From the sequence record OL615011: 64,000 bases of DNA; one strand, written 5' to 3'. The notes under the pieces were generated by a model. That model saw nothing but the letters and a program-made list of their open reading frames with translations. It was not told where the DNA came from and did not search any database. The translations under genes and the position numbers were made by a program. Within the stretch, counting starts at the first letter, position 1. Each line of letters starts with the position of its first letter. This document shows positions 19,896-40,753 of the stretch, one piece after another. The stretch comes from Shigella phage vB_SboS_Gloob.

Positions 19896-19914
19896 ATCGA
19901 TACCCTCAATTTTG

Positions 19915-24500: not shown

Positions 24501-26397
24501 GGTAGTACGCCGCATCGCGCTGGCCGCCGTCCAGAGTGAAGTTCGAGGTGACGTCAGCGCCATTTGCGTTCTTCACGCTGACCAGTTTGTAGCCGTCGTG
24601 ATTGTTCAGCTGTACGCTGGCCGCCGAAGTGAACGTTGCGGTCTCGGTGACTTCGGTCACAGTCTTTGTCTTGATCGTTGCTGTGGTACGCACCATCAGA
24701 GCCAACAGGTTGATGGATTGGTTGGCATAGCCAGCACCCAAAGAGATCTGGAGAGCAGAACCCACTGGTGTACCTGTCAGAGACAGTCCTGAAGAAATAT
24801 CGAACTGAGCTGCAGTGCCATCTGCCTTCGCCGCCGAATACAAAGAGAATTCAGGACTGAAGCTGTAGCCCAGAGGAGCAGAGATAGAGCCTGTGCCTGC
24901 CGCACTCAACGTGATCTTGTTTGACCGCAGGACGGTGTAGTTGATATCAATGGTTCCAGTAGGAGCCAAGGTCTTCACGCCGAATACAGGCAGAGGGAAG
25001 ATCAGGTCAATCGCCGAACTCTGGCTGAACTGATTAGACTCCAGTTCGCAAGAGAACATTGTTGTACCGCTTTCTTCATAAGCGACTTTGGTCACCGTGC
25101 CCATGTCCCCAGTCACGACCAGATCACGCATGTACAGACGGAATTCAGTACCGGAGCGCTCTGCTGAAATCAGCAGCGCCGTTGCCTGGGTCACGCTCGA
25201 AGCGTTCAGGAACTTGTAACGGATTGTGCGAGAGACAACCGGAACCCCTTTGGAGTTCTTGGACACCAGATAGTTGCCAGTCGCAACAGCCACAGGGTTG
25301 TTGTTCAGGGTATCAGTGTCACGGGCTTTATCAATGGTGACCAGCTCTTCGCCGAGGTTTTCGATACGACGGCCACGAACGTAGGAGATCCCTGGCTTCA
25401 TGACCGCCACGAATTTGCTTGCGTCACCACCTTCAGCCGGAGTGTACACGCCGCCGTTGTTGTTCTCTTTCAGATGTTCACGCAGGTCGATCTGATGCGT
25501 AGACACGTTGTAGTCACCATTGGTCTCATAGGTACGCTGAGCCATGGTGTCTTCGAGGATGTTGTACGTTGACTGGGTGACCATGGACTGAATGCGACCG
25601 TCTTTCACCTTCGCCAGTTCAACGAAGTCGGCCACTTCTTCATCATAACCGTAGCGAGACAACACGAGGTCGACGCGCAGGCGATGCGCGCCAGGCGCTT
25701 TAGAGTTCGGAGTACCCTGCGCATTGGAATACAGGCTTTCGTCTTCTGCTTCTGTAACAATGGTTTCTGTTACTTTGAATCCAACGCGGTGTGAAGTAGA
25801 GTTGGACGCGTTATCTACGATCAGAGTAGCTGGTTCAACATCTAGGAACATACCACGAACAAAATAAACACCCTTTGTCATGCGAGCAACAATCGAACCG
25901 CCAACAGTAGCAGCCACACCATAGCCGACGCGGATGAAGTTATCGTTCACGTCGTAGGTGTTGAAGTACAGGTTATCCCCAGCTTCGAAACCGTCTGAAC
26001 TACCACTCTCAGTCATCTCTAAGATGGCATACATTGTATCCGGCTCAGCCAGGTAACGTTCCAGAGACAGGACGCGTGCTTTCGCATTGTTGTCCTTGCC
26101 CAGAACATAGAGTTCGGAGATACCTTCCAGATCAGTGAACTCGCTACCACCAGCCAGAGTGAACTTCATGGACACTGCGGTGTTGGTGATTGTCAGACCG
26201 CCGGGAATAACCATAGATCCTTCTTTGAAAAGATGGTTGCCGATCTTTTCAAGCTGGTCTTGGAAGATAGTCTGAAGCTGGTTCAGTTCACGCGTCTGTA
26301 CTTTGATAGGAGCCGGACGGAACAGGATGCGTGAAAAACGCTTCTCTGGATTCCAGTCATCCCAGTACGGGCGGCGGTTGAGGTTCATTTCTTGCAT
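21559..26397 (-). CDS. giant virion structural protein (1612 aa), function unassigned
   Basis: ATG at 26397 (MQEMNLNRRPYWDDW); the 88-codon extension in the track overlaps the upstream tailspike 3' end and is rejected. Confidence 0.6.
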   Translation of the reverse strand: MQEMNLNRRPYWDDWNPEKRFSRILFRPAPIKVQTRELNQLQTIFQDQLEKIGNHLFKEGSMVIPGGLTITNTAVSMKFTLAGGSEFTDLEGISELYVLGKDNNAKARVLSLERYLAEPDTMYAILEMTESGSSDGFEAGDNLYFNTYDVNDNFIRVGYGVAATVGGSIVARMTKGVYFVRGMFLDVEPATLIVDNASNSTSHRVGFKVTETIVTEAEDESLYSNAQGTPNSKAPGAHRLRVDLVLSRYGYDEEVADFVELAKVKDGRIQSMVTQSTYNILEDTMAQRTYETNGDYNVSTHQIDLREHLKENNNGGVYTPAEGGDASKFVAVMKPGISYVRGRRIENLGEELVTIDKARDTDTLNNNPVAVATGNYLVSKNSKGVPVVSRTIRYKFLNASSVTQATALLISAERSGTEFRLYMRDLVVTGDMGTVTKVAYEESGTTMFSCELESNQFSQSSAIDLIFPLPVFGVKTLAPTGTIDINYTVLRSNKITLSAAGTGSISAPLGYSFSPEFSLYSAAKADGTAAQFDISSGLSLTGTPVGSALQISLGAGYANQSINLLALMVRTTATIKTKTVTEVTETATFTSAASVQLNNHDGYKLVSVKNANGADVTSNFTLDGGQRDAAYYRSNLVSSTGAISGVFTVVYQYFAHSSGDFFTADSYSSIDYQDIPNYVSSSSGTVYGLADSLDFRPKITSGASDTDMVRPNTAIVLDAEYYLPRIDAVYLADNGVFNVARGVSSNNLASPAIPDNGMRLYELMIPPYTANIDDIQIRTIDNRRYTMRDIGKLETRISNVEYYTSLSQLESSAMTQQVFDPITGNPRFKNGIAADPFKDFRLIDDLSADWVGSIDTDNGRLRPFVQQNAVDLTPVGWNNVQDGMVVCNYTREISVRQDYATTTINVNPYAVFNWEGFLKLNPTTDYWFENYYVAPRVINETINTRGAIKEGSVYGTWRTVSVSERVWEPHGAGGVWWGYRYRTTVSTRDVTTYTYTDKTTTTLTGEQIVETQVIPYMRKTNINFEATGLRPFTRVYPFFSGRDVSAYCTPNGGSLGGALNTDANGNIKGVFAVPQNETVKFNTGDNVFRLTDSPVDSKSADDTLTNAEAVHKSFGKKQGIQKTYVNTRVLGYTATKSTENKTETVEVAKWKDPIAQSFMVATNIGGEYIEGIEVFFSTKSRDIPITLEIREMSNGLPATTVVTRKTLNPSEVSISTDSSVPTMFKFDYPVYLQAQTEFAIVLLANTQDYNAYIAEMGKKNLLTNEFIAKQPYTGVFFTSSNGTTWTPNQTADMKFRVYRCNFSAGDNIVTFDAKVGPKIRPLGLNMVNCVSGSSTVTVYAPGHGLTAGESVTLSGLTGGCGFTPEQLNTQHTVTDASFTSFKVVLSSNADSDGQIGGEEASFLGNYLVDMFYASVTNSALEGSVLKLEYRYRDATSNSFSDWAEFESDTDVPLPTEGIYRQVGDFQVRATMTRNESNVYTAPMIDGDDFTIIFNTYGVDPFEDVFSYVTKDIGFDNPCTTLKQYFGAMLPSQSSMTVQVKLLRAGQEMDDVAWETVTPTSPLVNDGSTFFEYEYDKTVDSTNPFVGLKIRLLVRGNRTAPPSFKDFRLIALA

Positions 26398-26432
26398 TTT
26401 GATGCTCCATCGATAGGTGCCATTATAGACAT

Positions 26433-26443
26433 ATTTAGTATAC
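26433..26443 (-). promoter_or_regulatory. late promoter motif variant CTAAATATGTC
   Basis: About 35 nt upstream of giant-gene ATG. Confidence 0.4.
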
Positions 26444-26470
26444 AGCCAACCGAGGAATAGAAAGAAATAA

Positions 26471-26486
26471 GCCCTCCGAAGAGGGC
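26471..26486 (-). terminator. terminator GCCCTCTTCGGAGGGC plus U-tract after tailspike array
   Basis: Stem-tetraloop followed by UAUUUCUUUCU on minus strand. Confidence 0.65.
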
Positions 26487-26492
26487 TCTGAT

Positions 26493-28955
26493 TTAGTTGA
26501 CAGAATCCAGCATCGACAAACATTTCAGCTGAACTTGCACAACACTTTCGTTGGTCACGGCTGGAACAGTCAACCCAGATGCAGATATGCCGAAATTCGC
26601 TATGAAGCCTGTGGTCTGACTCCGCACGACATCTGTACCCGTGCCGCTCCCACCGTTGCAAGCAAACTGGGTCTGTTTCGAACCGAAAGCATCACCATTA
26701 CCACTTACACATAACTGCCAAACTCCGCGAGGAAGAGTTCCCGGTATTGTTATGGAAGCCGCCCCCGCAGGCCTGGTGAATTTAATATTTTCAAAGAAAA
26801 TAGTATCTTCAATTGTAGCCGTGTTTCGTGTTCCGAAACTCAGTGCCTGGTTTCCAACAAAACTGATGGATGTGCGACTGTCAAGAACAAAGCTAGACAA
26901 AAGCCCAGTCTGTGCTGTGACGTTACAGTCGACGATGTTGCCGTGTGCAGTGACCGCTTTCGGAATACCCTGAATTTTGTAACCAACAGTCCGGTAATTC
27001 AGAGAAAGGTTATTCAATTGTTTAACAGTATTCCCGATCATCTTGACTTTCTGGCCGCGATAAACCTGACCAGAAGTTGCCCCCGCATTAACGCAAATCC
27101 CCTCCGTTTTGTTATTAGAGGTATTGCATTTCATGACCACGGTATTATGGCTGATGTCTATATCGTTGTAAACAAAGTACGAGCTGTCCCCCGCACCAGT
27201 TGCTATGGAAACACCGTCGACAGAACGGAGTTCGCAATAGTTGTTTAGCACTTTCACGAAAGGTTCAGGATAAGTTGTGCTCGTGGGTTCACCCCCGCCC
27301 CCGACGTCGATAGACCTGGTATACTTCGCCCCAATCAATGGACCCGTGGTCTCACTGTCTGGAATGTCGCGAGAACGGACGTAGTTGTTTGCAATTATCA
27401 GGTTATACGGCTCATAATTTGGACTCCAGCCGACGCCACATTTGGCATAAATACCCACAACGCCGTGTTCTAAACATTGGTTTCCCGTGATGATCGCTTG
27501 TCCACCACCATGGAAATCAATACATTTTCTACGACAATTTTGGATCTGATTGTTGGTGACTGTAACGTTTCTGACTCGGCGGTTTCGGCCGTGTGTAATG
27601 CCATACCCAGGGTCATAACTGGCGTTGACCAAGTCATCACCGGATGGATGCCCGATATCATTAATGACGTTGGCGTCGTAGTTCAGGCGATAACCAGATA
27701 GCACATAAATGCCGCCACTGTAGCATTTACTGATAGTAGAATTGACCACCAAAATACCGTTCGGTACGTCTGAATCCACGGTGTAGTCGGCTGTCCCATA
27801 AGCAACAGCGGCGTTCCTGATACCGATACCAACCCCAGCAAAGTTGAATCCGGTTATATGACAGTTATTAATCAAAATGCCACGACATGCTCTCTGCACT
27901 TTAATCCCACACGCCCAGCTTCCGATGTAACCACCAAGGAAAGTGCCCCAAGTGCTCCTCCAACCCGCAATTTGGGTGCCTGCGGAGTCGTAGGAAGGGA
28001 ACTGCCCAGATACACCAGAATAAGCACCACTAGTGTAAGCAGAACTGTCAACTGAATTGTTGGGTCCTGTGATTTGAGCTGAATCATACCCAAAGCCAGT
28101 TTCACCTTTCTCTGCATACCCGGTGGTTGGGTCTATCGCTGGGAAAATGCTGGGTCCGGTTATCGTCAGTTGCACAGTAACGTTTTCACAATTAACTAAT
28201 GATAAAGCGTCAAGTCCGTGTGTATTGACTTTAATCGAACCATTGAATACCTTTATCCCTTTCTTGTTCACGAGCGCTAAACAAGGGCTGAAGTTTCTTG
28301 TTCCATCAGAAAAGTCAGATTCACCGGGATATTTGTTAGCCAACGCAGGATTTTTGGACACGAGGTAATTTCCTCCACCCAAATTCAAATCCCCAGAAAC
28401 TGATTCAAAGAAAGCTTGGAGGGCTAACGTGTCGTCCGTGCTACCATCACCGATAGCACCGAAGTCTTTTGGAGTCAAAATTCTTTTGGCTGGGTTAGAT
28501 TGTAAAACCCAGGTAGAAGAAGAAATGCCTCCTGTGTTAGAGACTGTGTCGTTCGCCGATACCGTCTTCGGCAGAGAACCCGCCCAACGATACAATTCCT
28601 TCCCGTCACTCACCAATTCGTTCTTGACGCGGATAGTGAATCCAGACGTAAAGTTTTCGACCAGAGTAACGAACTCCCCACGTATTACAGCCAAAGCACC
28701 CAGGTCGACAGTGCCCGTATTGTGTACAAGAATGCCGTCTGTCAGGCTGGTGATGGTAGCGCCAGCAGGCAGGTTAGAAGGTAGTGCATAGGAGCGCTGA
28801 GTGACCTTATCGTAGATTACCTTGTAACCAGTCAGGGTGGAACCTGGTTTAGCATACAGAACTTCGGACTTCTTGCATCCAAACTTGCGAGCAATGGAGT
28901 CCTTGTTTGTCTCTTTGGAGACAGAGCCTTTCGGCTGTGAAAATTGCGGATTCAT
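26493..28955 (-). CDS. tailspike protein (about 820 aa), beta-helix depolymerase-like
   Basis: Start MNPQFSQPKGS with AGGAG SD; N-terminal WAGSLPKTV docking motif; Asn/Gly-rich repeats typical of right-handed beta-helix. Confidence 0.7.
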   Translation of the reverse strand: MNPQFSQPKGSVSKETNKDSIARKFGCKKSEVLYAKPGSTLTGYKVIYDKVTQRSYALPSNLPAGATITSLTDGILVHNTGTVDLGALAVIRGEFVTLVENFTSGFTIRVKNELVSDGKELYRWAGSLPKTVSANDTVSNTGGISSSTWVLQSNPAKRILTPKDFGAIGDGSTDDTLALQAFFESVSGDLNLGGGNYLVSKNPALANKYPGESDFSDGTRNFSPCLALVNKKGIKVFNGSIKVNTHGLDALSLVNCENVTVQLTITGPSIFPAIDPTTGYAEKGETGFGYDSAQITGPNNSVDSSAYTSGAYSGVSGQFPSYDSAGTQIAGWRSTWGTFLGGYIGSWACGIKVQRACRGILINNCHITGFNFAGVGIGIRNAAVAYGTADYTVDSDVPNGILVVNSTISKCYSGGIYVLSGYRLNYDANVINDIGHPSGDDLVNASYDPGYGITHGRNRRVRNVTVTNNQIQNCRRKCIDFHGGGQAIITGNQCLEHGVVGIYAKCGVGWSPNYEPYNLIIANNYVRSRDIPDSETTGPLIGAKYTRSIDVGGGGEPTSTTYPEPFVKVLNNYCELRSVDGVSIATGAGDSSYFVYNDIDISHNTVVMKCNTSNNKTEGICVNAGATSGQVYRGQKVKMIGNTVKQLNNLSLNYRTVGYKIQGIPKAVTAHGNIVDCNVTAQTGLLSSFVLDSRTSISFVGNQALSFGTRNTATIEDTIFFENIKFTRPAGAASITIPGTLPRGVWQLCVSGNGDAFGSKQTQFACNGGSGTGTDVVRSQTTGFIANFGISASGLTVPAVTNESVVQVQLKCLSMLDSVN

Positions 28956-28988
28956 AACGAATCTCCTGTTGTTATTCTCAATGGAAAG

Positions 28989-29011
28989 CCCCACTTAGTT
29001 AATAAGTGGGG
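28989..29011 (-). terminator. hairpin CCCCACTTA-GTTAA-TAAGTGGGG between tailspike genes
   Basis: 9-bp perfect stem downstream of stop at 29034. Confidence 0.45.
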
Positions 29012-29033
29012 AAAGGAAAGGTGTAAAATTAAT

Positions 29034-31241
29034 TTAAGAAGATGCAGACCATTGTGGCATGCTGAGTGTCCACTTACCAATTGACGTCCAATAAGTAGCA
29101 GTAAATGTAGCAGTCTTAGTTGTGGCAGTATTCGCACCCGTAACATCAACAGGAACACCTGCAAAACTCAAAGATGCAATGTTACTACCACGAACCAACA
29201 TATTAATTTTTTGCCCGTTATACGGTGTTCCAGACACTGTGATATTCAAACCGGAAGTCACATTTAGATAATATAATGCGTATCCCTGTCGGACATCTAT
29301 AGGAAGTGTTCCAGCTGTATATTGTGCAAAGGATTGTGTACCACGGTCTACAGCCAAGCCGTCTGTGTTACCTATTGGGATAACGGTTCCGCCAGGGAAT
29401 GCCCTAGCCCTTGGAATATAGGCGTAACATTGGCTTGCCCCAGAGAAATCAAACCAACGGGTTCTCAGTCCATTATTAGGAGCATGGATCACAGCCCCAA
29501 CACAACCACGACCTCGATACATACAGTCACCGATGGAATGACTATGATTTATACCGGCACAATAAAAGTCCCGGCTTCCTCCGCTTAGGTTGATATCAGC
29601 AATATCATTACGCTCAAAGTACATTCCGTAGACGTTTGTTCCGTCTGCGCTGTCGTAAAGTCCAAACTGACTGGTGTTCTGGCTAAATCCACCTGTAATG
29701 CACACGGCAGATGTGGAAAAGGTATTCACGTAATCGACATCAGTGCTTCCGTCAGTGCTGTTAAAAACTACGATGCCATAATCGCACTTGTTAGCAGGGT
29801 CGCCAGAGTATCCTCGATGGTCTTTAATCGTAATAGCATTCGGGCCATTAAGGACAAACAGACGTTTACCACCTATTCCACCGTTCAAAACCTCAGAGTT
29901 AGATATAATAACCCCATAACTCATAAACTCGATTCTAATTCCGGTGTTTCCTGTTCCTAGCCCCATATCAATCCAAGGGTCGAAAACACCAGTGTTGTTT
30001 CTGGCGCTGTATAAATGCAAGCCGATACAGTTGTTAAACCCAGAAAGGTCAATACGTATATCGTGAGTCTTACAGTTTCGAATAAAGGCGCTATTAACGT
30101 CTAATGAAGAAGCTCGTGCTACAGTGACTCCATCCGCCCCAGCTTTAATTTTTGCATTGGGATGGAAAAATACTTGGGTGTTCTGACCGAATTTAATGGT
30201 TTCTGCTGCCGTTGATACGGTGTAGTCTCCTGCATTGAAATAAATCCCACCACCAGCGGCCAAAATTGTGTTGATTTCCGCGTTGGTCATCGTCGGATAG
30301 ATGTTTTTCAACGGGAAAACGCCGGTTTTAACGGCATAATCATCGAAAATAGTACCACCATACCCGCTGCCAATTAATTTAGTTCCTATATCAGAAGCCA
30401 ATTGGTCACGTAAAGAATTTTGGTCTACTCGTACCCAAGCATCAACATCAATACCACCAGTGGTAACTGGAGTAGATCCGGCTACCACAGTTTTAGGCAG
30501 CGTGCCTGCCCAACGATACAATTTACCTTCTGCCTTATATCCGACAGACTGAGAAGCCGTAATAACAGTAGCACCAGCTTCAAACGTGCCTACCATAGGC
30601 AAACCAGATTCGGCAGCTAATCGACTCAGGATAGGATCGAGAGCACCACTGAAATTACCAGAGGCTTGTTTAAGTGTATTAATCTCCTCTTGCACCGTCT
30701 GCCCAGAAGACGTACCAATCAGACTTGCTCCTCCATCGGAAGAGAGCGCCAGGTAATTTTGTTTGATGGACATCTCGGCCACGACCCAAACCCCAGCCGC
30801 TGGTGAACCTGTAAGGAAACTCACAACTCCTGTTGTGCTATTGTAGGTGTAGTCAACCCCAGGAACCTGGAACTTACCATCGATATACAGGGTCTGCACA
30901 CCATATGTGGTGAAGTCGGGTGTGAACGTTGTTTCGTTGCCAACGGCCTGGAACTTGTAGATTCGGATCCCGTTTTCATAATCTTCTGGGGACAGGATCT
31001 TGTCAAACAGACAGTACACAACGTCTTCTGGTTCAAGAGATCGACCGAGGTTGACAGTGTTACCATCGATTTCATAATTGTCGACAGGAACCTGGACGCC
31101 GCCGTTGATGGTGATGAAGCCCGTAACAGGATAGAACGGGAGGGAGATAAACGTCTCTCCGCCCGTTGCGGTATAAGTGTATGGAATCTGGTGCGGGGCT
31201 GTTACAACCGCTCCAAAGATACTCTCGACGTTTCTGGTCAT
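29034..31241 (-). CDS. tailspike protein with extended N-terminal attachment domain (about 735 aa)
   Basis: Start MTRNVESIFG; WAGTLPKTV motif at about residue 250; beta-helix-like repeats. Confidence 0.7.
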   Translation of the reverse strand: MTRNVESIFGAVVTAPHQIPYTYTATGGETFISLPFYPVTGFITINGGVQVPVDNYEIDGNTVNLGRSLEPEDVVYCLFDKILSPEDYENGIRIYKFQAVGNETTFTPDFTTYGVQTLYIDGKFQVPGVDYTYNSTTGVVSFLTGSPAAGVWVVAEMSIKQNYLALSSDGGASLIGTSSGQTVQEEINTLKQASGNFSGALDPILSRLAAESGLPMVGTFEAGATVITASQSVGYKAEGKLYRWAGTLPKTVVAGSTPVTTGGIDVDAWVRVDQNSLRDQLASDIGTKLIGSGYGGTIFDDYAVKTGVFPLKNIYPTMTNAEINTILAAGGGIYFNAGDYTVSTAAETIKFGQNTQVFFHPNAKIKAGADGVTVARASSLDVNSAFIRNCKTHDIRIDLSGFNNCIGLHLYSARNNTGVFDPWIDMGLGTGNTGIRIEFMSYGVIISNSEVLNGGIGGKRLFVLNGPNAITIKDHRGYSGDPANKCDYGIVVFNSTDGSTDVDYVNTFSTSAVCITGGFSQNTSQFGLYDSADGTNVYGMYFERNDIADINLSGGSRDFYCAGINHSHSIGDCMYRGRGCVGAVIHAPNNGLRTRWFDFSGASQCYAYIPRARAFPGGTVIPIGNTDGLAVDRGTQSFAQYTAGTLPIDVRQGYALYYLNVTSGLNITVSGTPYNGQKINMLVRGSNIASLSFAGVPVDVTGANTATTKTATFTATYWTSIGKWTLSMPQWSASS

Positions 31242-31247
31242 TTGAAG

Positions 31248-31288
31248 ATACCCCATAGAGGATTTGCCAATATGGGGTATTTAGTGAA
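31248..31288 (-). repeat. 41-nt module ATACCCCATAGAGGATTTGCCAATATGGGGTATTTAGTGAA, copy 1 (late promoter plus leader palindrome)
   Basis: Identical to 33467-33507; contains CTAAATACCCC on minus strand and inverted repeat ATACCCCATA / TATGGGGTAT. Confidence 0.75.
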
Positions 31289-31440
31289 TGGATAAGGAGT
31301 CGCAGGACTCCCACTTGTTTTATATGATTACGAATTTACCCAGGCTGATATCGTTAATCAGCGTAGCCACTATGTTTGCCAGTTGGGTGGTTGTTAACGT
31401 GTTCACATGACCACGCAATTGCTGGCTACAACAATGATTG

Positions 31441-33462
31441 TTAGCTTAGATTTAGACTAAACCCACCATTTGACTTGCTTATCATACCACGAACAGTTTT
31501 GTTGCCTCCACCGCTGTATTCGTCATATTGCATTTTGACATTTACAGCGATGTTGGCGTCAATTGAATCCCATCCAGCAAAGTTCAGGAACACATTTCCG
31601 CTAGTGTCTACTGATATTGTTGGCGTGGCGGCTGTTCCTTTTGTGAACGTACTTTGCACTGAACCTTCCATTGTGCTTGCTGCTGGAGTTGTGCCCATCA
31701 CCAATGTTCCCTGCAATCGCCCATGCCATGCGCTAGAAACACCTGAAACCGGGGAGTTGGCTACAACATCAACCGTCCACAAACTTACGTTTCGGTACGT
31801 ACTCACAGTGCCAATTTTAAAATTCCTGGAATCTCCAGCGGCTTTAATGAACAGCATTGAACCCGTAGCGCATTTACTTGAATCAGGCGCTGCACCTACA
31901 GATGCAAAATCAGAGAATGTGCAATTATCAAATTTTACTTTGCTATAATCGGTAGCTGTTAACTTAGCTTCTGGCGCATTAACATTTTCGAATTTAACTC
32001 CGCCATAGTTCGCCACTGCGCCTGTAAGCTGATTGGTATTGACATATACATCACCACCATTCAGCTTTCGGACCACCAGGTCACGACAGATAAATCCGTT
32101 AATAGAATCTCCCGACGTCCAGTTGTCGTTGGTGTTGAAGTTAAAGAACCATGCATGGTTACCAGAGTCTCCGCCGCCAAGTTCTATGCGTCCGGTGATC
32201 ACAATATTTGAATAACCATATCCACGCGGGTTATTATCTGCTACAGACTCGTCAATCAGCTTTGTTGCGCCAATAACACTTCCCCAATTCCCCCCGACGA
32301 CATCATAATTGATGGTTATGTTACGCATCAGTCCGGCAATCATCGTCTCTGTTATGGTGCTGTCCCAACCCCAATCCAGCCATATTGGTGCTACGCGGTA
32401 CGGAAGCGTGTAACGCCCTGTGCTACGATATTTGTAATTGACTGTAAGATTAGATATTTGATTATCCATGTTACCGTTATAGAAATACATTTTGATTGGC
32501 GTACCCTGTTGAGTATCAATGGCATCAACAGTTATCTGGCCACCACCACAATTGTTCGTCAGAAAGAAATCACGACGGCAACCATTATTAACTGTATGGA
32601 TGTCAACTACACCAACATTACCAAGGAGATGTGGATAGCGAGTGTCATTGTTCACACTGCGAGCAAAAAGATTTTTTACATTAGTACATTCGTAGCCCTG
32701 ATAGCACTTGTTAGTCTTGCCAATAAATGTGAAATTATTGCATCCATTCAGGCGCAGCGGGGTTAGTCCGCGTTTGTCATCACCGACATACTCAAGGGTG
32801 GAAGAAGCATCCACTTCAAACACCAGATTGGTGATATTCGTCAGGTCGAACACGCGCGTCAGGTCAAATGCACCGGAGTAAAGCAGGGTGTCCCTGATAA
32901 CCAGTCCGCGAATTTCAAGGCAGTCCATATTACTTAAAGTAAAGATGGTACTAAGACCGCCACTACCAGGACCAAAGTTCACAACCTGGTCAAAAATAAT
33001 TTCAACACTTTTTAGGTTGTTAGACGTGATGTAAGACTGTAAAGATTGCAGTGTACCGAATCGGGAGAAGTAAAGGACACGTTTGTTTACAACCGAATCA
33101 AGAGCATCTTTTACTGTAGATGATTCGTATCCGACAAGACTTGCCTTTTCACCCGTCAGCAGTTCAGAACCCAGCGTTTTGCTTTCAACGCTAACCCATG
33201 CTGAAGATGATACACCACCAGTTGATTGTGGTGTTGAGTTTTTGTCTACAGTCTTGGGCAAAGACCCACCCCAGGTATAACACTGGGCACCATTGATGTG
33301 CCACACGGCGTCGGTTGCGGTCGTTACAGTAGCACCGTCTTCAAAACTACCTTCGACCAAATTAAGACCCGATTCCAACAAAGCCCGCCGCCACAATTCG
33401 CGCGGGTTTTTGTTGATTTCTTTGGCTGTTGAACCTTTCGGCTGATTGAATTGCGGATTCAT
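31441..33462 (-). CDS. tailspike protein (about 673 aa)
   Basis: Start MNPQFNQPKGS; WGGSLPKTV motif; beta-helix-like. Confidence 0.7.
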   Translation of the reverse strand: MNPQFNQPKGSTAKEINKNPRELWRRALLESGLNLVEGSFEDGATVTTATDAVWHINGAQCYTWGGSLPKTVDKNSTPQSTGGVSSSAWVSVESKTLGSELLTGEKASLVGYESSTVKDALDSVVNKRVLYFSRFGTLQSLQSYITSNNLKSVEIIFDQVVNFGPGSGGLSTIFTLSNMDCLEIRGLVIRDTLLYSGAFDLTRVFDLTNITNLVFEVDASSTLEYVGDDKRGLTPLRLNGCNNFTFIGKTNKCYQGYECTNVKNLFARSVNNDTRYPHLLGNVGVVDIHTVNNGCRRDFFLTNNCGGGQITVDAIDTQQGTPIKMYFYNGNMDNQISNLTVNYKYRSTGRYTLPYRVAPIWLDWGWDSTITETMIAGLMRNITINYDVVGGNWGSVIGATKLIDESVADNNPRGYGYSNIVITGRIELGGGDSGNHAWFFNFNTNDNWTSGDSINGFICRDLVVRKLNGGDVYVNTNQLTGAVANYGGVKFENVNAPEAKLTATDYSKVKFDNCTFSDFASVGAAPDSSKCATGSMLFIKAAGDSRNFKIGTVSTYRNVSLWTVDVVANSPVSGVSSAWHGRLQGTLVMGTTPAASTMEGSVQSTFTKGTAATPTISVDTSGNVFLNFAGWDSIDANIAVNVKMQYDEYSGGGNKTVRGMISKSNGGFSLNLS

Positions 33463-33466
33463 GATA

Positions 33467-33507
33467 ATACCCCATAGAGGATTTGCCAATATGGGGTATT
33501 TAGTGAA
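33467..33507 (-). repeat. 41-nt promoter/leader module, copy 2
   Basis: Identical to 31248-31288. Confidence 0.75.
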
Positions 33508-33518
33508 ACATTTTACCG

Positions 33519-36500
33519 CTACACGTATACAATGCGCATTATTGCGTTCGTTCCGGCCTCAACAATTGATGTGACAGAACCAATTTTTACGCCAGTCGAA
33601 TCAGTAATTCTTACTACCCCGTCCACATTGTCAATCTTTGAATTAACAGTCTGGTTAATCTGTATGGCATTCACTTTGTTTGAGGATATTTCGCTTGCAA
33701 CCAGAGTACCAGTGGTCATGACTATACCCACAGAAGAACTTCCCTGGTTTAATACAGCGTCACGGATAATGGCTTTGGTGACATTTCCACCAAACTGAAT
33801 ATCTGCAGACGTAGTTGATGCCTGATTAATACGTTTTACACCAGATATTGTGATCAAAGATATTACACCTGAAGTGATGTCCAAGGAAATAGCACCTTTG
33901 TTCGTGGCTGGACTGGACAAGGAAATATCAGACAAGTGAACAACGCCAATGGTATTCCCAGCCCTTTGTTGAAAACGAATACCGCCGCTGTATCCTTGTC
34001 CGTATATCCCATTTATATGGGCATACGGAACGTTACCCAGCGCGTCGCGAATCGCAACTACATATTCAGCACCTTCGGACCATATATTTGTTGCGTTAAC
34101 TTGTCCTGAGTTTATCAACAAACCCGCACCGATCCCCGCCAATGTGTCAGAACCTGTGCGCTCTGTATTCAAGAACAGATTGCTAACATGGTTTAGGCCA
34201 TACGCACAATCAACTCCATTCGATATGCGTCCGCGTCCTGTGATCGATTCCGCCCACCCATTTTCACCATATAAACTAACGATAGAATACATGGCCGTGT
34301 CTGTGGTATCGCAAACTGCGTTAACAATCTTAACTGAAACATCATTGGCTTGAATTTTAACAGCACGTTTACGAACGTTGTAACAATCAATGTCTTCGAC
34401 GCGAATATTCTTTGCGCTCAACATCGTCGAGGTCGAGTCATATATCTGTACAACGACCCCATCACAATCTTCAAATGGAGCCAATTCGCGAACACGTATT
34501 GATTTGATCAAACCACTGGAAACTGTGGATTGCGTCGGCGCAGGATCGAGTGCTGTTCCGACGATAATGCCACGACATGGGCCATCCGCATCCCCTTGTG
34601 AGCCGTTCGCAACTGAAGTCAGGTTACGAATAGTCACATCATAAACCAAAAAATCTGTGATACCATTAGCATCGACAAATATCCCGTTGGCATTGGTTGC
34701 TCCTGTGCTGTCAAATACTTCAACAGAAACAACTCGAGGTCTAGAAGATCCCGTTTTAAGGTGAACGGCGCGGCGAATTGCTTTGTTATTACAATTCACC
34801 TTTACGTCCCGTAGAGTTGTAGAATTTACGGTTACAAACGAACCAGTATCACCCAATGCTACAACTTCACCATTGAATAATTTCTTGACAATATTCAAGC
34901 TAGAAACAGGAACGGCATATCCGTTCAAATCAACATCGAGTCCAAATTCCATGATGGCTTCGATGGATTCTTTTGCATCAGCAAGTCCCGTGGTATACAC
35001 ACCAGGCCAGCGCAGCTTACCACCATTGGGTAATAATTTGTACGAATTGGAATTGTAAGTCAGATACAAATGAGAACTCTGAACTGAAAATCCTTCAGAA
35101 AGACCCGTCACCGAAGTATCCAAGACGTAAACTTCGCCAGAAATGATTATGGTTTCAAACGCTTCGGTATCCATTTCTTGCCCAGCGTGAACCCCGCCAC
35201 CAATATAGTTGATCCCTACACTGGAACCCAAGAGACTAGACAAATGGTCTGCAGAGCCCAAGTATGGTATCAAAGTCACAACGACGTCACCAGGAGCATA
35301 CGTCAGGGTGCTACCGCTGACAGACACGATAGAAGCGCCCGTTGGAATGCCCGCAGGTAAACCCCAAATCTTCTGAGCAACTACATCGTAAATGATCGTC
35401 TTGCCGCCCAATTTGGTCACAGTATCCGAAGTCATGATCACCTGGGAAAGAGGGACATTGGTTGCCCGCGCCACTTCGTTTGGTGTGCGGTCAATCTGAT
35501 TGTACAGTGTTGGATCACCATTAATGACGACAACAACCTCATCACCAGCTTCGAGTTCGTCGGCCAGCGTGATGATCTTCGTAACAGAGTCATAAGTGAA
35601 GCCCAGGCCTTTCTGCTGGCGGGATCCATCGATAAAGATCTCAGAAACATCTTCGGCATCCACGTCCAACTCAATCTCAGTTTCACCACCCACAGCTGAT
35701 CCACTATTGTAGATCCAAGTGATAACCGTACCACCACCCGCACCGCCGGAGCCATTGCCCAACTGGATCGGGACGTATTGGATGACCTGCAGCTCGGAAC
35801 CTGATGGGATTGATGGACTGAAGTCGACATTGAAACCATTGAGGGAATACTTTGACTCTAGCAGGCGCTTCCCGTCAACATACACATCAACAATGGACGG
35901 CTGTGTGGTGAGAGTTACCTGAGCTGTGTCTGATGCAACTGTCTCAGTGAAGATGGTACGACTGTAAACGCGCCCCTGACCAAGACCGACGCCAGCAGTC
36001 ACAATCCAACCACGCGCGTCTCCAGACCAGGTAAAGGTCGCAGACACGCTATCGGTGGAGAGAGTCATAGGCTCTACAGAGCCGTACATTGGGCGACCAT
36101 TTGGGTCAATGGTCAGAGGATACAGGGAGAACTTTCCATACAAGTCACAGACTGTAACAGAATCACCAATGCGCGTAGGGGAAGGAAACACCACCGTAGA
36201 GACGCCCGTGGAGTTGTCTACCAGATAGCCTCGCCCTTCAGTGAGCGTTGCCGTAGAGGCATGCGGAAGGGCTTCCCAGCGAATACCACCGCCACCCAGC
36301 GGCATCCATCCACCATTTTCGTAGAAGCCCTCAAATTCGTCGGAGTCGGCATTGTAGCGAACAGAAGACGGGAGACCTGCGCTGGCATTACCCTCGGGTA
36401 AAGTCAGGACAGCATCTGGTCCATGCTCAATCGTACCCGTGTTGAGGATACCAGCCAAAGTAGACTGCTCTTCAGCCACCAGACCGAGAGGGAAAACAGG

Positions 36501-36521
36501 CTGTGTTGGTTTATTAGCCAT
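33519..36521 (-). CDS. large tailspike / branch-anchor protein (about 1000 aa)
   Basis: Start MANKPTQPVF; long N-terminal region then beta-helix-like C-terminal part; first gene of the array. Confidence 0.65.
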   Translation of the reverse strand: MANKPTQPVFPLGLVAEEQSTLAGILNTGTIEHGPDAVLTLPEGNASAGLPSSVRYNADSDEFEGFYENGGWMPLGGGGIRWEALPHASTATLTEGRGYLVDNSTGVSTVVFPSPTRIGDSVTVCDLYGKFSLYPLTIDPNGRPMYGSVEPMTLSTDSVSATFTWSGDARGWIVTAGVGLGQGRVYSRTIFTETVASDTAQVTLTTQPSIVDVYVDGKRLLESKYSLNGFNVDFSPSIPSGSELQVIQYVPIQLGNGSGGAGGGTVITWIYNSGSAVGGETEIELDVDAEDVSEIFIDGSRQQKGLGFTYDSVTKIITLADELEAGDEVVVVINGDPTLYNQIDRTPNEVARATNVPLSQVIMTSDTVTKLGGKTIIYDVVAQKIWGLPAGIPTGASIVSVSGSTLTYAPGDVVVTLIPYLGSADHLSSLLGSSVGINYIGGGVHAGQEMDTEAFETIIISGEVYVLDTSVTGLSEGFSVQSSHLYLTYNSNSYKLLPNGGKLRWPGVYTTGLADAKESIEAIMEFGLDVDLNGYAVPVSSLNIVKKLFNGEVVALGDTGSFVTVNSTTLRDVKVNCNNKAIRRAVHLKTGSSRPRVVSVEVFDSTGATNANGIFVDANGITDFLVYDVTIRNLTSVANGSQGDADGPCRGIIVGTALDPAPTQSTVSSGLIKSIRVRELAPFEDCDGVVVQIYDSTSTMLSAKNIRVEDIDCYNVRKRAVKIQANDVSVKIVNAVCDTTDTAMYSIVSLYGENGWAESITGRGRISNGVDCAYGLNHVSNLFLNTERTGSDTLAGIGAGLLINSGQVNATNIWSEGAEYVVAIRDALGNVPYAHINGIYGQGYSGGIRFQQRAGNTIGVVHLSDISLSSPATNKGAISLDITSGVISLITISGVKRINQASTTSADIQFGGNVTKAIIRDAVLNQGSSSVGIVMTTGTLVASEISSNKVNAIQINQTVNSKIDNVDGVVRITDSTGVKIGSVTSIVEAGTNAIMRIVYV

Positions 36522-36554
36522 TTCAAATACCCCTAAATGTGTTCGTTTCATCTA

Positions 36555-36565
36555 GGGGTATTTAG
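36555..36565 (-). promoter_or_regulatory. late promoter motif CTAAATACCCC with downstream palindrome
   Basis: Exact motif about 30 nt upstream of ATG 36521. Confidence 0.5.
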
Positions 36566-36573
36566 TTTTCACT

Positions 36574-37785
36574 TTAGAAAGAAGCGACTAGATTGTAGTC
36601 AACGGAGCAAGCAGTCGTCGTGTTCGCATTTGTTATCGTCAAACGAAGTTTTGAAGACACTACAGAACCCGCGAATGTCACCGTACCGGAAGTGGACTTC
36701 TGAATCAACAACTCCGACTTGATAGTCCCGTCACGAGTGATCGTCACTCGATACGTATCCACGACGTTGCCCGTACCCCATTGCGCGCTAATCAACACCT
36801 GGCAAAGGTTCACCAAGTCGAAGTCAGGCAATGCCGAGTTACCAGAAGCAGAGATAGTGATACTGCTTAGGTTGGTCTTCCCGATCTTTACACGGGCGGC
36901 AATGTCGGCGTCCAGGCTCGTCATTTTGGCGTTGTAGGTCGATGTGTTGACCTTTCCAGACAACGTGGTATTGATCGTGCCGATATCACTCTGAATGCCG
37001 CTGATGGAACTGTCCAACGCCGCCATCTTCGTGTTATACGTACTGACGTTCACTTTGTTGTTCGTCAGATCCAGTATACTGGTGTCCAGGCTAGACATCT
37101 TGGAGTTGTAAGTCGACGTGTTGACCTTCGCAGCCAGAGTGGTGTTGACAGTGTTGAACTGAGACTGGATATCCAACATATCGGCATCATATTCAACAAC
37201 CTTCAGATACGCGTTGAAACGCGTATCATTGAAGATAGAAGTCACAAACGCAGATGTGTCGTACTTGACAGTGTCGGTTCCACTCACCAGTAACATGGTA
37301 GTTGGCACACCAGTACCAGAGTAAGTGGTCAGATTTGTGCCATCGAAAGTGAGTTTGTTGTAGCCGCCAGATAACAACTCGATTTTCAGACCAGAGTTAA
37401 CCCCGGCAGTGTCTTCACTCACGCCGTGCTTGCGCAGCATAGACAGATTGACGCCATCAGTGGAATCAACTGGCTCATCTGCGATGGTAAGTTTCTTCCC
37501 CGTAGGGATACTGACACCAGCATTGGCTCGGATTTCTGCGGCAAAAGTCTTCCGCCCGTTGATAGTTTGTTCCCCGCCGTCGGTGCGAATCACCTTATTA
37601 TCCAACGTGTCGTAGATGTTATCCACAGAACGCTTCAGTTCATACGTCAAACGAGCAGACGGTGGAAACAGAGGATCGTTCACCGCAAAGTCGTCGATGA
37701 CATCGTTCTTGCTTACTTTATCGTCAACAGAAGAAAGGATTTCATCAATCTGCTGACCTGTGTATTGACTCAGAAAATCGGCCAT
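36574..37785 (-). CDS. tail fibre-like protein with internal tandem repeats (403 aa)
   Basis: AAGGAG SD; three about 25-aa repeats (KVNTSTYNSKMSSLD, KVNVSTYNTKMAALD, KVNTSTYNAKMTSLD). Confidence 0.55.
   Translation of the reverse strand: MADFLSQYTGQQIDEILSSVDDKVSKNDVIDDFAVNDPLFPPSARLTYELKRSVDNIYDTLDNKVIRTDGGEQTINGRKTFAAEIRANAGVSIPTGKKLTIADEPVDSTDGVNLSMLRKHGVSEDTAGVNSGLKIELLSGGYNKLTFDGTNLTTYSGTGVPTTMLLVSGTDTVKYDTSAFVTSIFNDTRFNAYLKVVEYDADMLDIQSQFNTVNTTLAAKVNTSTYNSKMSSLDTSILDLTNNKVNVSTYNTKMAALDSSISGIQSDIGTINTTLSGKVNTSTYNAKMTSLDADIAARVKIGKTNLSSITISASGNSALPDFDLVNLCQVLISAQWGTGNVVDTYRVTITRDGTIKSELLIQKSTSGTVTFAGSVVSSKLRLTITNANTTTACSVDYNLVASF
36880..37200 (-). repeat. about 75-nt imperfect tandem repeats inside the fibre gene
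   Basis: Repeated GTTGACCTT / GTCGA(C/T)GTG units encoding the repeated peptide. Confidence 0.5.
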
Positions 37786-37787
37786 TT

Positions 37788-38642
37788 TTAACTCCTTGAA
37801 CTTTCCAGGAATACAGTAAACCCAGCAGGATGGAAATGCTGACGGAAGACGCGCTCAAACACACCTTCAAAATCAGATACGTCGCCAGGAACTCTTATCA
37901 CATACGTGAATTCATCATAGTAGTAATCGTCACGCATTCCTGTCGCGCCGTCACATTCAAAGTTATCGTCCAGACCACCAATTTCTTCCTTGGGATAGTA
38001 CACACTCACAGGGCAACCAAAATAAATCCAGAAAAACAATTCAATCGCTTTCTTCGTCCCACGAATGCGATAAATGTGTTTAAGCAACTTCAACCAGCGG
38101 ACATGGTCCAGCGTTCGACGTTTGGTTCCCTCGACATACACAGAGAGCGTGTCTCCGTCTGAAGTCACCAAACTGTCCGAACCAACTGGCACAAACTTCC
38201 CGAACTCCAGGAAGGTCTTATCAACCGTTCTCTGGAATCCAAAATCAGCATACCAATCGTCGATGCGTTCGTTCTTGTCTTCCATTGAGATTAATGGCCG
38301 ACCGTCTACATCCAGCAAATTTTCGAAGTCTAGCGCCATCATGTTCTCAAACGTGCGCGTCAGGAACTTGTCTTCCAAGAAGTCCTTGGCCTCGGTCCCT
38401 GGTGTCTTGCGCTTCTTGATGTCAATCAGCTGCTCAATAGGAGATTGATCCGTATTTGGGTTCACCCAACCATCAGTGTCTGCCAGATACGCCAAGATCT
38501 CCTCTTCGGTGAATCCCTGCTGGCGATACAGCCAGTTGAAGAACGTGTCCATGAACTCGATGAACACTGGGAATTCATTCTGGTAGAACAATGGGGTTTC
38601 ATATTTCACCCCATTGTGTCCGTTATTGAGATCTTTGGACAT
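37788..38642 (-). CDS. baseplate-associated protein candidate (284 aa)
   Basis: Position between gp6-like gene and fibre gene; by position only. Confidence 0.35.
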   Translation of the reverse strand: MSKDLNNGHNGVKYETPLFYQNEFPVFIEFMDTFFNWLYRQQGFTEEEILAYLADTDGWVNPNTDQSPIEQLIDIKKRKTPGTEAKDFLEDKFLTRTFENMMALDFENLLDVDGRPLISMEDKNERIDDWYADFGFQRTVDKTFLEFGKFVPVGSDSLVTSDGDTLSVYVEGTKRRTLDHVRWLKLLKHIYRIRGTKKAIELFFWIYFGCPVSVYYPKEEIGGLDDNFECDGATGMRDDYYYDEFTYVIRVPGDVSDFEGVFERVFRQHFHPAGFTVFLESSRS

Positions 38643-40404
38643 AACGCACCTCCGGCTCCACAGTTACAGCACCGATGCGAAGCACCTGGTTCTGTGTGGC
38701 CTGAATGTTCTGGTCAAGACCGTCTGGAGACACGATGATAGTCACTCCCTCGGTGTTGTAGTTGGATACTGTGATGCGCTGGAGTTCAACAACGCCATTC
38801 ACATAATCAACCGTTCCAACAGCTTGTACCAGATATTCCTTGGTCGTGTCTGCTGTACTCACCTTGTAGATATTCAGGACACCGCTGACATCGCGCATGT
38901 AGTAAGTGAAGTCGACCTCGGCCGGAAGCGGCTTAAACCCACTGATACGCACAGAACCAGATGCAATTGAGCGTCCATAATCGAACGTGAAGCTGTCCAG
39001 TACCCCATAGTCTGGCTTGAAGTGGCGCTTGTACTTCACGGAAGCGATGTTTGACGCTATCGATCTGTCCATGTCGGTGATGGCCGACTGCAACTGCTCT
39101 TTATCGAACAGTTCGTCGAATCCTTCCAGGTTCCCCAAGCCCCAGTTGACAACACCGTTCTTTACGACTGTCTTCAACTGCTCTTCGGTGTAGGCTGTGG
39201 AAGTCGGATCCCAGAACACGCGGGTGGTGACATCAACATAAGTCAGTTCGGCGTCGACAATCTTGGGTGTGATCGTACCCACATTGTACTTGTCCAAAGT
39301 CGCCACGATATCTGCCTTCTCAGCGTCCGACAGCGTCTCACCAACAGAAGGTACTACAGCAATGTAAACGTATCCAGAGTCGGGCGGAGATAGCGTGTCT
39401 CCGCCATATGCTTTGGCGCGGGAGACGTTGGAGAACAGACGCTCGGTCAACACAGCATAATCGACTTCGGCTACCGCCGCACCCTCAGCCTGATAAGCCA
39501 GCGGAGCAAGGCGCTTGATGTCCTCAATGCTCTCTGGGTCTGTACCGCCAGAAGAACGTTCTGACACCAGTTCAACATCTACAAGGTTGAAGCCCCCGAT
39601 GGAAGACGCAGAGGACAAGGCAGTGATGTCATTGCCGTCTGCACCAGAGGTCTCCAGATACTGAAGGTACACGACGTTCCCGTCTTCTACTCGTTTACAG
39701 ATATACCCATCACCGAATTCAAACGTGTACATCCCGTCTAACCCCAGCTCAACGAAGTAGAGTTGTGCATACTGGCTCAAATCGAACGGGCTGACATATC
39801 GTGAGAAGGTAGACCGCACGTCGGAGGTCTCAGATTCCTGTACCTGCACCACCATGTGGTTGATGTCCACGGAAGAAGATGGGATCACATAGGTAGAGAT
39901 CGCGCTGCCTTCCACGTCATAGGACTTGTACAGCCAGTTGCCCTGCACGAGTTTGATGTTCTCGAACTTGTAAGAGCCGTCTACAAGAGAGGCGCTCACA
40001 GGTTGGTCAACCGTGAAGTTGTAGGATTTGCCATCCTTCGCCCCAATGAACATCGCCCGGCGATCCATTACAATCGTGTCTGGAGCCGTGCTGGCGTCAT
40101 ATGGAGTGACTGTGACGTTTGCGTACAGGAACGCCGCCTGGTAGTTGTGAGGGGTGTAAGACAAGAACCCCGCCGCCAGACCGACATTAGAACGCTGTTG
40201 AGCAGAGTGAAGATGGCTTTCGCCATTCAGCATGTTCTGCATGAACCCGATAGAGTTGGCATCCGAGGCCAAGATACGCACGATTGCACTGAGACCAGAA
40301 CCTTCAAAGTCATAATCCTTGAAAGTTGGATCAGCTTTCATGCGCTTCTTGATAAGATACTCGAAAGCCCTGACATCGAGTGAAGGAACTGTTTGTGTGG
40401 CCAT
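38623..40404 (-). CDS. baseplate wedge protein, gp6-like candidate (about 593 aa)
   Basis: Start MATQTVPSL at ATG 40404; size and position; no search. Confidence 0.45.
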   Translation of the reverse strand: MATQTVPSLDVRAFEYLIKKRMKADPTFKDYDFEGSGLSAIVRILASDANSIGFMQNMLNGESHLHSAQQRSNVGLAAGFLSYTPHNYQAAFLYANVTVTPYDASTAPDTIVMDRRAMFIGAKDGKSYNFTVDQPVSASLVDGSYKFENIKLVQGNWLYKSYDVEGSAISTYVIPSSSVDINHMVVQVQESETSDVRSTFSRYVSPFDLSQYAQLYFVELGLDGMYTFEFGDGYICKRVEDGNVVYLQYLETSGADGNDITALSSASSIGGFNLVDVELVSERSSGGTDPESIEDIKRLAPLAYQAEGAAVAEVDYAVLTERLFSNVSRAKAYGGDTLSPPDSGYVYIAVVPSVGETLSDAEKADIVATLDKYNVGTITPKIVDAELTYVDVTTRVFWDPTSTAYTEEQLKTVVKNGVVNWGLGNLEGFDELFDKEQLQSAITDMDRSIASNIASVKYKRHFKPDYGVLDSFTFDYGRSIASGSVRISGFKPLPAEVDFTYYMRDVSGVLNIYKVSTADTTKEYLVQAVGTVDYVNGVVELQRITVSNYNTEGVTIIVSPDGLDQNIQATQNQVLRIGAVTVEPEVRYVQRSQ

Positions 40405-40442
40405 GTTTATCTCCATCACCTGAACTTGAATATGGTGTTGAA

Positions 40443-40451
40443 GATATTTAG
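40443..40451 (-). promoter_or_regulatory. late promoter motif variant CTAAATATC
   Basis: About 40 nt upstream of ATG 40404. Confidence 0.35.
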
Positions 40452-40753
40452 CGGGATGGGATTGAATCTTCCTCGCGCGTTATTTTATTATACTATCACT
40501 CGCTCCACTGCGTTCCGCTCGGATAACACCGCCTTGACAGGCAGTCCCATTCCACAGCCATGGAGGCTGCTTTTCGTTGTTCGTTAACACTCACAACTCA
40601 AAGGGCACCACAGTAAGATACAGTCTCTGAGTGGTGTAGAAAAGTAGTTTTTGCCTATTAATAAACCACGCTCCTATTTGTTGGCCTTTAATTCAATAAC
40701 ACTTCCACCAATATAATAGTCCGGTCAATCAACCGTATATTAAGGAACCTCTC

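Follow-up and report, generated by a model that had tools for sequence, protein, structure and literature searches.

A predicted late promoter within a Shine-Dalgarno-pairing hairpin precedes tailspike genes of Shigella phage vB_SboS_Gloob

Why should two different tailspike genes of one phage be preceded by the same 41 nucleotides? We analyzed a 64,000-nucleotide stretch of DNA from Shigella phage vB_SboS_Gloob (OL615011), referred to here as the window. The phage is an Agtrevirus-like member of the Ackermannviridae, ~97% identical to Shigella phage Ag3 across much of the region. Two of its tailspike (tsp) genes are preceded by an exactly repeated cassette and a third by a related one. Each copy combines a putative late-promoter box, a hairpin and the Shine-Dalgarno (SD) sequence. 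The hairpin that pairs promoter-proximal bases with the SD is the most distinctive property of the cassette, and was absent from an initial annotation of this DNA. We consider the cassette an expression gate, a late promoter set within a hairpin, that is general to this phage and its family, was recently duplicated in this lineage and occasionally serves as a recombination joint. We assign this reading a probability of roughly 0.6; our confidence in the anatomy of the cassette is high, and in the mechanism moderate.

Results

The repeat and its hairpin

The 41-mer ATACCCCATAGAGGATTTGCCAATATGGGGTATTTAGTGAA, as read on the plus strand, is present in exact copies at 31248-31288 and 33467-33507. 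An exact search bore out this claim of the initial annotation, and dinucleotide shuffles gave 0 matches. When mismatches are allowed, the likeness reaches 46 nt at 96%. The annotation also placed the cassette just 5' of tailspike start codons: both copies do adjoin tailspike ATGs, with the genes lying on the minus strand, as do all large open reading frames (ORFs) of the region. In the sense direction each copy reads TTCA-CTAAATA-CCCCATA-TTGGCAAATCCTC-TATGGGGTAT, where TTGGCAAATCCTC is a 13-nt loop, and each such unit is an inverted repeat, that is, a hairpin. The ATG lies 4-6 nt downstream of TATGGGGTAT, after TATC in the tsp3-type gene and after CTTCAA in the tsp2-type gene.

The copy before the tsp3-type gene (product beginning MNPQFNQP; cassette 33467-33507, minus strand; ATG 33462-33460) comprises TTCA, the CTAAATA box (33503-33497), a 5' arm AATACCCCATA (33500-33490), a loop (33489-33477) and a 3' arm TATGGGGTATT (33476-33466) that holds the SD, GGGGT (33473-33469); the predicted transcription start (+1) is at about 33491. 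Before the tsp2-type gene (MTRNVESI; cassette 31248-31288, minus strand; ATG 31241-31239) the box lies at 31284-31278, the 5' arm at 31280-31271, the loop at 31270-31258 and the 3' arm at 31257-31248, with the SD GGGGT at 31254-31250 and a predicted +1 at about 31272. The related cassette before the TSP4-type gene (MANKPTQP; cassette 36524-36565, minus strand; ATG 36521-36519) has its box at 36565-36559, a 5' arm TAAATACCCCTAGATG (36564-36549), a loop (36548-36540) and a 3' arm CATTTAGGGGTATTTG (36539-36524) with the SD GGGGT at 36533-36529. It has ACTAAATACCCC (36555-36566) and GGGGTAT in common with the 41-mer and differs from it in the inner stem and loop, and a search with the 41-mer at up to 3 mismatches does not find it. 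The near copy reported before the fourth spike is real, at 36524-36565, but looser than that description suggested.

Allowing one mismatch, the core CTAAATACCCC has 7 matches in the window against 0.13 expected, and 4 of the 7 are at non-tailspike sites. To call the element a promoter-plus-leader cassette, as had been done, is apt in that it holds a predicted late-promoter box, the whole 5' leader and the SD; it is not specific to tailspike genes, since it also precedes gp6, a neck gene and genes of unknown function.

The CTAAATA box in the window and in relatives

CTAAATA occurs 14 times in the window (expected 3.4 +/- 1.9; none of 100 shuffles reaches 14). Each is on the strand that is coding locally, and 13 of the 14 are located 23-42 nt 5' of a start codon on the same strand. 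Most of the genes that follow are virion genes, among them those for the head scaffold, tail sheath, neck protein, baseplate wedge gp6, three tailspikes and a VriC-like protein of 1612 aa. Exceptions or unknowns are one helicase gene and three ORFs whose function is unknown. The helicase gene (2-754, minus strand), which runs off the end of the window, has a box upstream and no hairpin, and is a non-structural gene apparently under a late signal. The single box not before a gene is an orphan at 10474-10480 (minus strand) with no start codon within 60 nt. At 780-786, 19919-19925 and 48939-48945 the TAA of the box doubles as a stop codon for the gene before it; at other sites, the end of that gene is often 3-15 nt from the box.

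We compared the tailspike loci of Ag3, MK-13, EspM4VN, pSal-SNUABM-02, LIMEstone1, RC-2014, ViI, CBA120, fGh-Ecl02, Magnus, IME250 and CAU_YEP3, together with IMG/VR hits. CTAAATA, including the leading C, is invariant in ~50 unique orthologous leaders from at least 12 phages, and no phage compared departs from it before gp6, TSP4, tsp2 or the VriC-like gene. The likeness between orthologous leaders begins exactly at the first C of CTAAATA, and the upstream flanks are unrelated; there is thus no conserved -35 element, as at T4 late promoters (PMC2988020).

From this enrichment, position and conservation we infer promoter activity. Nolan et al. (PMC1524935) give the T4 late box as TATAAATA at -13 to -6 and list CTAAATA 'beginning at -12' as the predicted late consensus of Aeromonas phage Aeh1. 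CTAAATA matches 6 of the last 7 positions of the T4 box and is identical to the Aeh1 consensus at -12 to -6. Homologues of gp55, gp33 and gp45 are present in Ag3 and CBA120 (PMC3121705, PMC3184105), and the GenBank record of LIMEstone1 (HE600015) labels TAAATA boxes upstream of tailspike genes 'putative late promoter'. The late-promoter sequence of the ViI family was stated to be unidentified by Kutter et al. in 2011, and the terms promoter, transcription and hairpin do not occur in a 2024 review of the Ackermannviridae. We predict that CTAAATA is the gp55-type late-promoter box of the phage, and the probability given above applies to this identification jointly with the rest of the explanation.

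A scan for sigma-70-like promoters returned 26 matches against 22.3 in shuffles, which is no enrichment. One such candidate, TTGGCA-17 nt-TATCAT in the tsp3 cassette (33461-33489, minus strand), was rejected: its -10 element overlaps the ATG, so transcription would start past the ATG, and with a count not above that of shuffles it is probably a chance match.

Predicted pairing of promoter-proximal bases with the Shine-Dalgarno sequence

At 7 of the 13 box sites, which include those of the three tailspike genes and gp6, the last bases of the box and the next 7-12 nt pair with the SD. The seven hairpins have predicted folding energies of -10 to -21 kcal/mol and z-scores of -3 to -8. Those of the tailspike leaders reach -17.5 kcal/mol (z -5.5) for tsp3, -16.3 kcal/mol (z -5.2) for tsp2 and -21.0 kcal/mol (z -8.1) for TSP4; their 5' arm begins within the box (ATA), their 3' arm is GGGGTAT, and no shuffle folds as well. 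The variant cassette of the gp6 gene (40405-40451, minus strand; box 40451-40445; ATG 40404-40402) pairs TCTTCAACACC with GGTGATGGAGA, which contains the SD GGAGA (-13.2 kcal/mol, z -3.0). At site 3972 (3939-3972, minus strand), before a 242-aa gene (phrog_2114; ATG 3938-3936), CTAAATA-CCCCCAT faces ATGGGGGTAT (-17.2 kcal/mol, z -5.1). At site 19925 (19896-19925, minus strand), before a neck/head-closure gene (ATG 19895-19893), CTAAATA-CCTTCAA faces TTGAGGGTAT (-10.2 kcal/mol, z -4.5), and at site 48451 (48451-48483, plus strand), before a 152-aa gene (ATG at 48484), CTAAATA-CCCCATACA faces TGTGGGGTAT (-17.2 kcal/mol, z -5.2). An ATG inside the hairpin was considered as a start codon. It is in frame at tsp2 and at site 3972 and out of frame at tsp3, and hence is not the start.

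The bases that follow the box vary so as to match the SD: TCTTCAACACC with GGTGATGGAGA at gp6, CCTTCAA with TTGAGGG at 19925, CCCCCAT with ATGGGGG at 3972. Each 5' arm pairs better with its own SD than with the SDs of other sites (summed energy -157.7 versus -95 +/- 12; 0 of 20,000 permutations). Among 33 unique gated leaders, offsets +1 to +7 from the box are paired in 27-33 of the 33, through 2-5 canonical pair types each; because this set was picked for folding, its paired fraction is inflated, and the information lies in the diversity of pair types. Shifting the register of the stem lowers pairing in gated leaders from 0.89 to 0.35-0.51. IMG/VR scans with TSP4 and tsp2 N-termini mostly returned sequenced isolates again and added little diversity, which leaves covariation among orthologs weak; we therefore relied on the comparison of paralogous sites. 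Among 75 crudely called leaders of the window, 12 have strong SD-burying hairpins, and 7 of these 12 carry the box (Fisher p = 1.3e-5). A search of 26000-41000 with Rfam 15 covariance models found no match at E <= 1.

A predicted gate on tailspike translation

What could such a pairing accomplish? From the geometry of the cassette we infer the position of +1 and a consequence for translation. CTAAATA would be the gp55-type box of the Ackermannviridae (Agtrevirus), counterpart of T4 TATAAATA. Its last 3-4 bases and CCCCATA would make up the 5' arm, and the 3' arm TATGGGGTAT would serve as SD, 4-8 nt before the ATG. RNA reading through from upstream genes would have both arms, fold and bury the SD; the hairpin may also pause transcription or partly terminate it. 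RNA made from the cassette's own promoter would start ~6 nt past the box (box at -12 to -6), beyond the C-tract and within the 5' arm. A transcript that lacks the C-tract would leave the SD exposed, so that essentially all translation of a tailspike would depend on RNA from its own late promoter. Co-directional upstream genes stop 8-15 nt short of the boxes of TSP4 and tsp3, and the intervening sequence holds no canonical terminator. The absence of the 5' strand of the helix from the late transcript is predicted from the geometry, that is, from the placement of +1.

In predicted read-through RNA the probability that the SD is unpaired is 0.00-0.03 at five sites, 0.12 at gp6 and 0.19 at tsp2. 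When the RNA starts at the sixth nucleotide after the box, this value rises from 0.00 to 0.45 at tsp3, from 0.00 to 0.52 at TSP4, from 0.01 to 0.38 at site 3972 and from 0.00 to 0.29 at site 48451.

Several points weigh against this explanation. At the tsp2 copy no opening of the SD is predicted (0.19 to 0.17, with a fixed -13 to -5 window), and late RNA can retain a CCUC/GGGG mini-helix, which limits predicted exposure to 0.3-0.5. Five of the 13 box sites are without significant structure, and gated and ungated sites are not told apart by how far the box lies from the upstream stop codon. The selection of the 33 leaders for folding counts here as well. Gated sites carry CCCC after the box and ungated sites are richer in AT, whereas in T4 late promoters the box is followed by an AT-rich segment (PMC2988020). 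Our literature search for the family found no data on start sites, transcriptomes, promoter activity or translation. Finally, the upstream genes are themselves late, whereas the T4 gate separates early from late transcripts. For this last reason the role of the gate is likely to be insulation from polycistronic read-through, or dosage of low-copy virion parts, rather than early/late timing.

Could the hairpin instead be mainly a terminator, an attenuator or a 3'-end stabilizer of the upstream gene, superimposed on an independent promoter in a composite arrangement like that of the promoter-early stem-loops (PeSLs), with SD overlap a by-product of tight packing? The cassettes do follow upstream stop codons by 8-15 nt, their stems have GC cores followed by U-containing tails (UAUUUGAAAU, UAUUAUCAU), and the PeSL stem-loops of T4-type phages are effective terminators that overlap promoter elements (PMC2839356). 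On the antisense strand, moreover, the complement of the box forms a U-rich tail (TATTTAGTTTTCAC at the TSP4 copy), so the cassettes, the TSP4 copy above all, resemble terminators of antisense transcription. In the plus-strand reading of 36519-36570 the reverse complement of the box supplies this tail after the hairpin (…TAGGGGTATTTAGTTTTCAC). But a generic scan for intrinsic terminators (GC stem, at least 5 T in 8) called no cassette hairpin, which have fewer than 5 T in 8 and long loops, and did call the hairpins of the other junction type described below. Nor does a terminator need a 3' arm that coincides with the SD, as it does at all 7 gated sites, or arms that change along with the SD (GGAGA at gp6, GAGGG at 19925). 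We regard the terminator explanation as unlikely on its own. It is compatible with a gate, and a contribution from termination or attenuation may exist alongside it.

Junctions and recombination

Two kinds of junction precede the tailspike genes. Type A, the cassette, is found before TSP4 and tsp2 in every phage compared. Type B, a terminator-like GC hairpin followed by AACAGGAGATTCnn-ATG and usually without a box, precedes tsp1-type genes. The tsp3-type gene has a type A junction in the window, fGh-Ecl02, ViI and CBA120 and a type B junction in Ag3, MK-13 and EspM4VN; the second cassette copy is therefore absent from Ag3, the closest relative of the window. In EspM4VN a TAAATA box (at -52) lies upstream of the type B terminator-like hairpin before the MNPQFNQP gene.

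The tsp3 and tsp2 cassettes of ViI and CBA120 have different loops (TTGGACATCC or TTGGTCATCC versus TTGGCAAATCC). In the window, as in fGh-Ecl02, one copy matches the other exactly, down to the non-conserved stretch before TAAATA (TTCAC in the window, TCAC in fGh-Ecl02), and identity that extends to non-conserved bases suggests recent copying or conversion. About 250 phage records have the cassette, usually in two places per record.

The initial annotation proposed that the identical flanks are substrates for homologous recombination, a suggestion that fares unevenly. In its favor, homology between the window and its relatives restarts exactly at the 5' edge of the cassette (33506/7 and 31284-31301), the tsp3 junction is exchanged in Ag3, MK-13 and EspM4VN, and RC-2014 is chimeric within the cassette. 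In RC-2014, the ~210 nt before the tsp2 cassette are 79% homologous to the 3' end of fGh-Ecl02 TSP4, which lies upstream of the fGh-Ecl02 tsp3 cassette, and the sequence downstream of the cassette matches fGh-Ecl02 tsp2 (85%); the switch falls inside the common 40 nt. It is the one clear crossover, the product expected of cassette-to-cassette recombination that removes or adds tsp3. RC-2014 also retains, between TSP4 and its cassette, ~600 nt of remnant sequence that take in the 3' end of another TSP4-type gene. In the window, 33519-33465 resembles the junction of the TSP4 end and the tsp2 cassette in LIMEstone1.

On the other side, the second edge of every variable segment falls inside a coding region, past a conserved N-terminal domain of 250-1250 nt. 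Where the cassette begins is, besides, simply where conserved functional sequence first reappears past the variable end of a gene. We checked the tailspike loci of the relatives for signs that would speak against the proposal, namely divergent sequence at this site and breakpoints elsewhere, and each was found in part. Published work on the family places tsp recombination in conserved 5' coding domains (PMC8432352 as cited in PMC10892097; PMC11414711), and the sole tsp rearrangements observed in the laboratory involve coding XD2 repeats (PMC11414711). The deletion of tsp3 in S117 (Sorensen et al. 2024) was considered as a cassette event and rejected, the duplicated XD2 coding sequence being involved instead. 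Because several tsp genes have near-identical cassettes in front, these have, on our reading, occasionally served as sites of crossover through which whole tsp genes were gained or lost.

Is the cassette, then, kept chiefly as a portable homology patch for swapping receptor-binding modules or whole tailspike genes? The identity of the window copies even in TTCA, which is not conserved among orthologs, the loop differences in ViI and CBA120, the junctions of Ag3, MK-13, EspM4VN, RC-2014 and LIMEstone1 and the precedent of the PeSLs (PMC2839356, PMC4122927) would fit such a role. But the same design occurs at gp6, the neck gene and other syntenic, non-plastic genes, and conservation among orthologs across genera, with compensatory changes, points to selection on expression. 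The conserved N-terminal coding arms (250-1250 nt) are far longer than 41 nt, and it was the XD2 repeats that recombined in experiments. We judge this explanation improbable, more so than that of a terminator.

Least probable is that the palindrome is a protein site, bound either at the promoter by a dimeric DNA-binding regulator or in the RNA by a translational repressor, for instance the RegA-like protein of the family: the dyad AAATACCCC...GGGGTATTT does overlap promoter and ribosome-binding site (RBS), a table in PMC10892097 lists a RegA-like repressor for Ackermannviridae, and I-TevI is autorepressed at an operator overlapping its late promoter (PMC2988022), but half-site spacing varies from 5 to 17 nt and inner-stem changes are compensatory, which fits a nucleic-acid helix rather than an operator of fixed geometry.

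Tailspike genes and neighboring features

All four tailspike genes lie on the minus strand. The TSP4-type gene (33519-36521, 1000 aa) has an N-terminal ~1250 nt conserved among relatives and a unique C-terminal receptor-binding part (~35270-33522). This part (33522-35270) has no close relative in 50,697 phage records, and no megablast match covers it; a search for a donor of the domain by tblastn matched Vibrio phage proteins only, at 29-32% identity. The tsp3-type gene (31441-33462, 673 aa) is 96% identical to Ag3 orf212. The tsp2-type gene (29034-31241, 735 aa) is conserved in its N-terminal ~550 nt and variable in the remainder. The tsp1-type gene (26493-28955, 820 aa, MNPQFSQP) has no cassette; upstream of it is a type B junction (28956-29011, minus strand) with a terminator-like hairpin CCCCACTTATTAACTAAGTGGGG (29011-28989), a conventional leader AACAACAGGAGATTCGTT and no CTAAATA.

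Just upstream of the tsp2 cassette copy, a GC-rich hairpin GGGAGTCCTGCGACTCC (31296-31312, minus strand) is followed by TTATCCATT; it is probably the terminator or attenuator of tsp3. It is one of two hairpins, the other being GCTGATTAACGATATCAGC, in a 152-nt non-coding spacer (31289-31440, minus strand) that separates the tsp3 stop codon from the tsp2 cassette. The spacer is kept whole in Ag3, and from ~31408-31414 in MK-13 and fGh-Ecl02.

In-register direct repeats at 28561-28597, 30453-30591 and 33214-33352 (spacings 1926 and 2761 nt, 68-81% identity) connect the tsp1-, tsp2- and tsp3-type genes in their N-terminal coding parts and represent common N-terminal domain modules. These are the regions in which the literature proposes recombination. 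Upstream of TSP4, a 403-aa structural gene (phrog_3838) contains a 90-nt internal repeat (36907-36996 and 37081-37170; 74% identity, 174 nt apart).

Discussion

The proposed gate has well-characterized counterparts. In T4, the genes e, soc, 49 and I-TevI have a late promoter within an SD-sequestering hairpin, as shown experimentally, and mobE of Aeh1 likewise (PMC3014915, PMC2988022). The cassette resembles the gates of T4 e, soc, 49, I-TevI, I-TevII, I-TevIII and segB and of Aeh1 mobE in that the box lies in the DNA for the 5' strand of the helix and the SD in its 3' strand, and CTAAATA is itself the predicted late consensus of Aeh1 (PMC1524935). In T4-type gates long transcripts fold and are poorly translated, and late transcripts start within the helix (PMC3014915, PMC2988022); here both properties are predicted. 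The cassette differs in belonging to the Ackermannviridae and in preceding tailspike, baseplate and neck genes, whereas T4-type gates precede lysis or homing-endonuclease genes. It also differs in being C-rich after the box, in having upstream transcripts that would be late themselves and, with them, a role that is probably insulation or dosage, and in being predicted from sequence.

A second resemblance is to the PeSLs of the T4-like phages phi1, RB49, PST and nt-1, for which modular shuffling by recombination was proposed (PMC2839356, PMC4122927). PeSLs are short, repeated intergenic cassettes of promoter, stem-loop and SD/start at the borders of indels or replacements between close relatives. 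Here, too, the stem-loop overlaps the promoter and has SD and start at its 3' end, phages that are 97% identical differ in having the cassette or not, and a chimeric junction falls inside it. PeSLs, however, have sigma-70-type early promoters and mostly precede ORFans in hyperplastic regions, whereas the box of the present cassette is of late type, sigma-70 signals are no more frequent than expected by chance, and the genes downstream are essential virion and host-range genes. Terminator activity and mini-circles are further traits of PeSLs; our cassette is described from sequence.

The same TAAATA boxes before tailspike genes were already predicted as late promoters in Limestonevirus and Agtrevirus (HE600015; Anany 2011; Adriaenssens 2012). 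Those annotations, made by similarity to T4, consist of the -10 hexamer only; the hairpin, the SD pairing, the repeat and recombination are not described there. The cassette joins the kind of gate found at T4 e with the kind of cassette represented by PeSLs, and is no new principle. A wider interpretation, which we offer tentatively and hold to be possible rather than probable, is a 'promoter-late stem-loop' system of the Ackermannviridae. In it the ~41-nt cassette would be late promoter, read-through gate or attenuator, RBS and recombination joint at once, and tailspike genes would be autonomous, insulated and portable modules.

For this family, whose late signal was called unidentified in 2011, our analysis provides a predicted late-promoter consensus, CTAAATA, with a predicted +1 ~6 nt downstream. 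It would extend the T4 device of a late promoter in an RBS hairpin, and the PeSL idea, to the late host-range genes of another family. If the gate is real, tailspike genes would be translated only from their own promoters. This would be relevant to host-range engineering in Ackermannviridae, such as tsp swaps or the addition of a fifth spike, where keeping, duplicating or breaking the cassette would alter expression and duplicated cassettes would promote deletions. If the more tentative promoter-late stem-loop system should also prove true, it would be a late-gene, host-range counterpart of PeSLs, through which whole tsp genes could be inserted, deleted and reassorted between phages while late expression and stoichiometry are kept.

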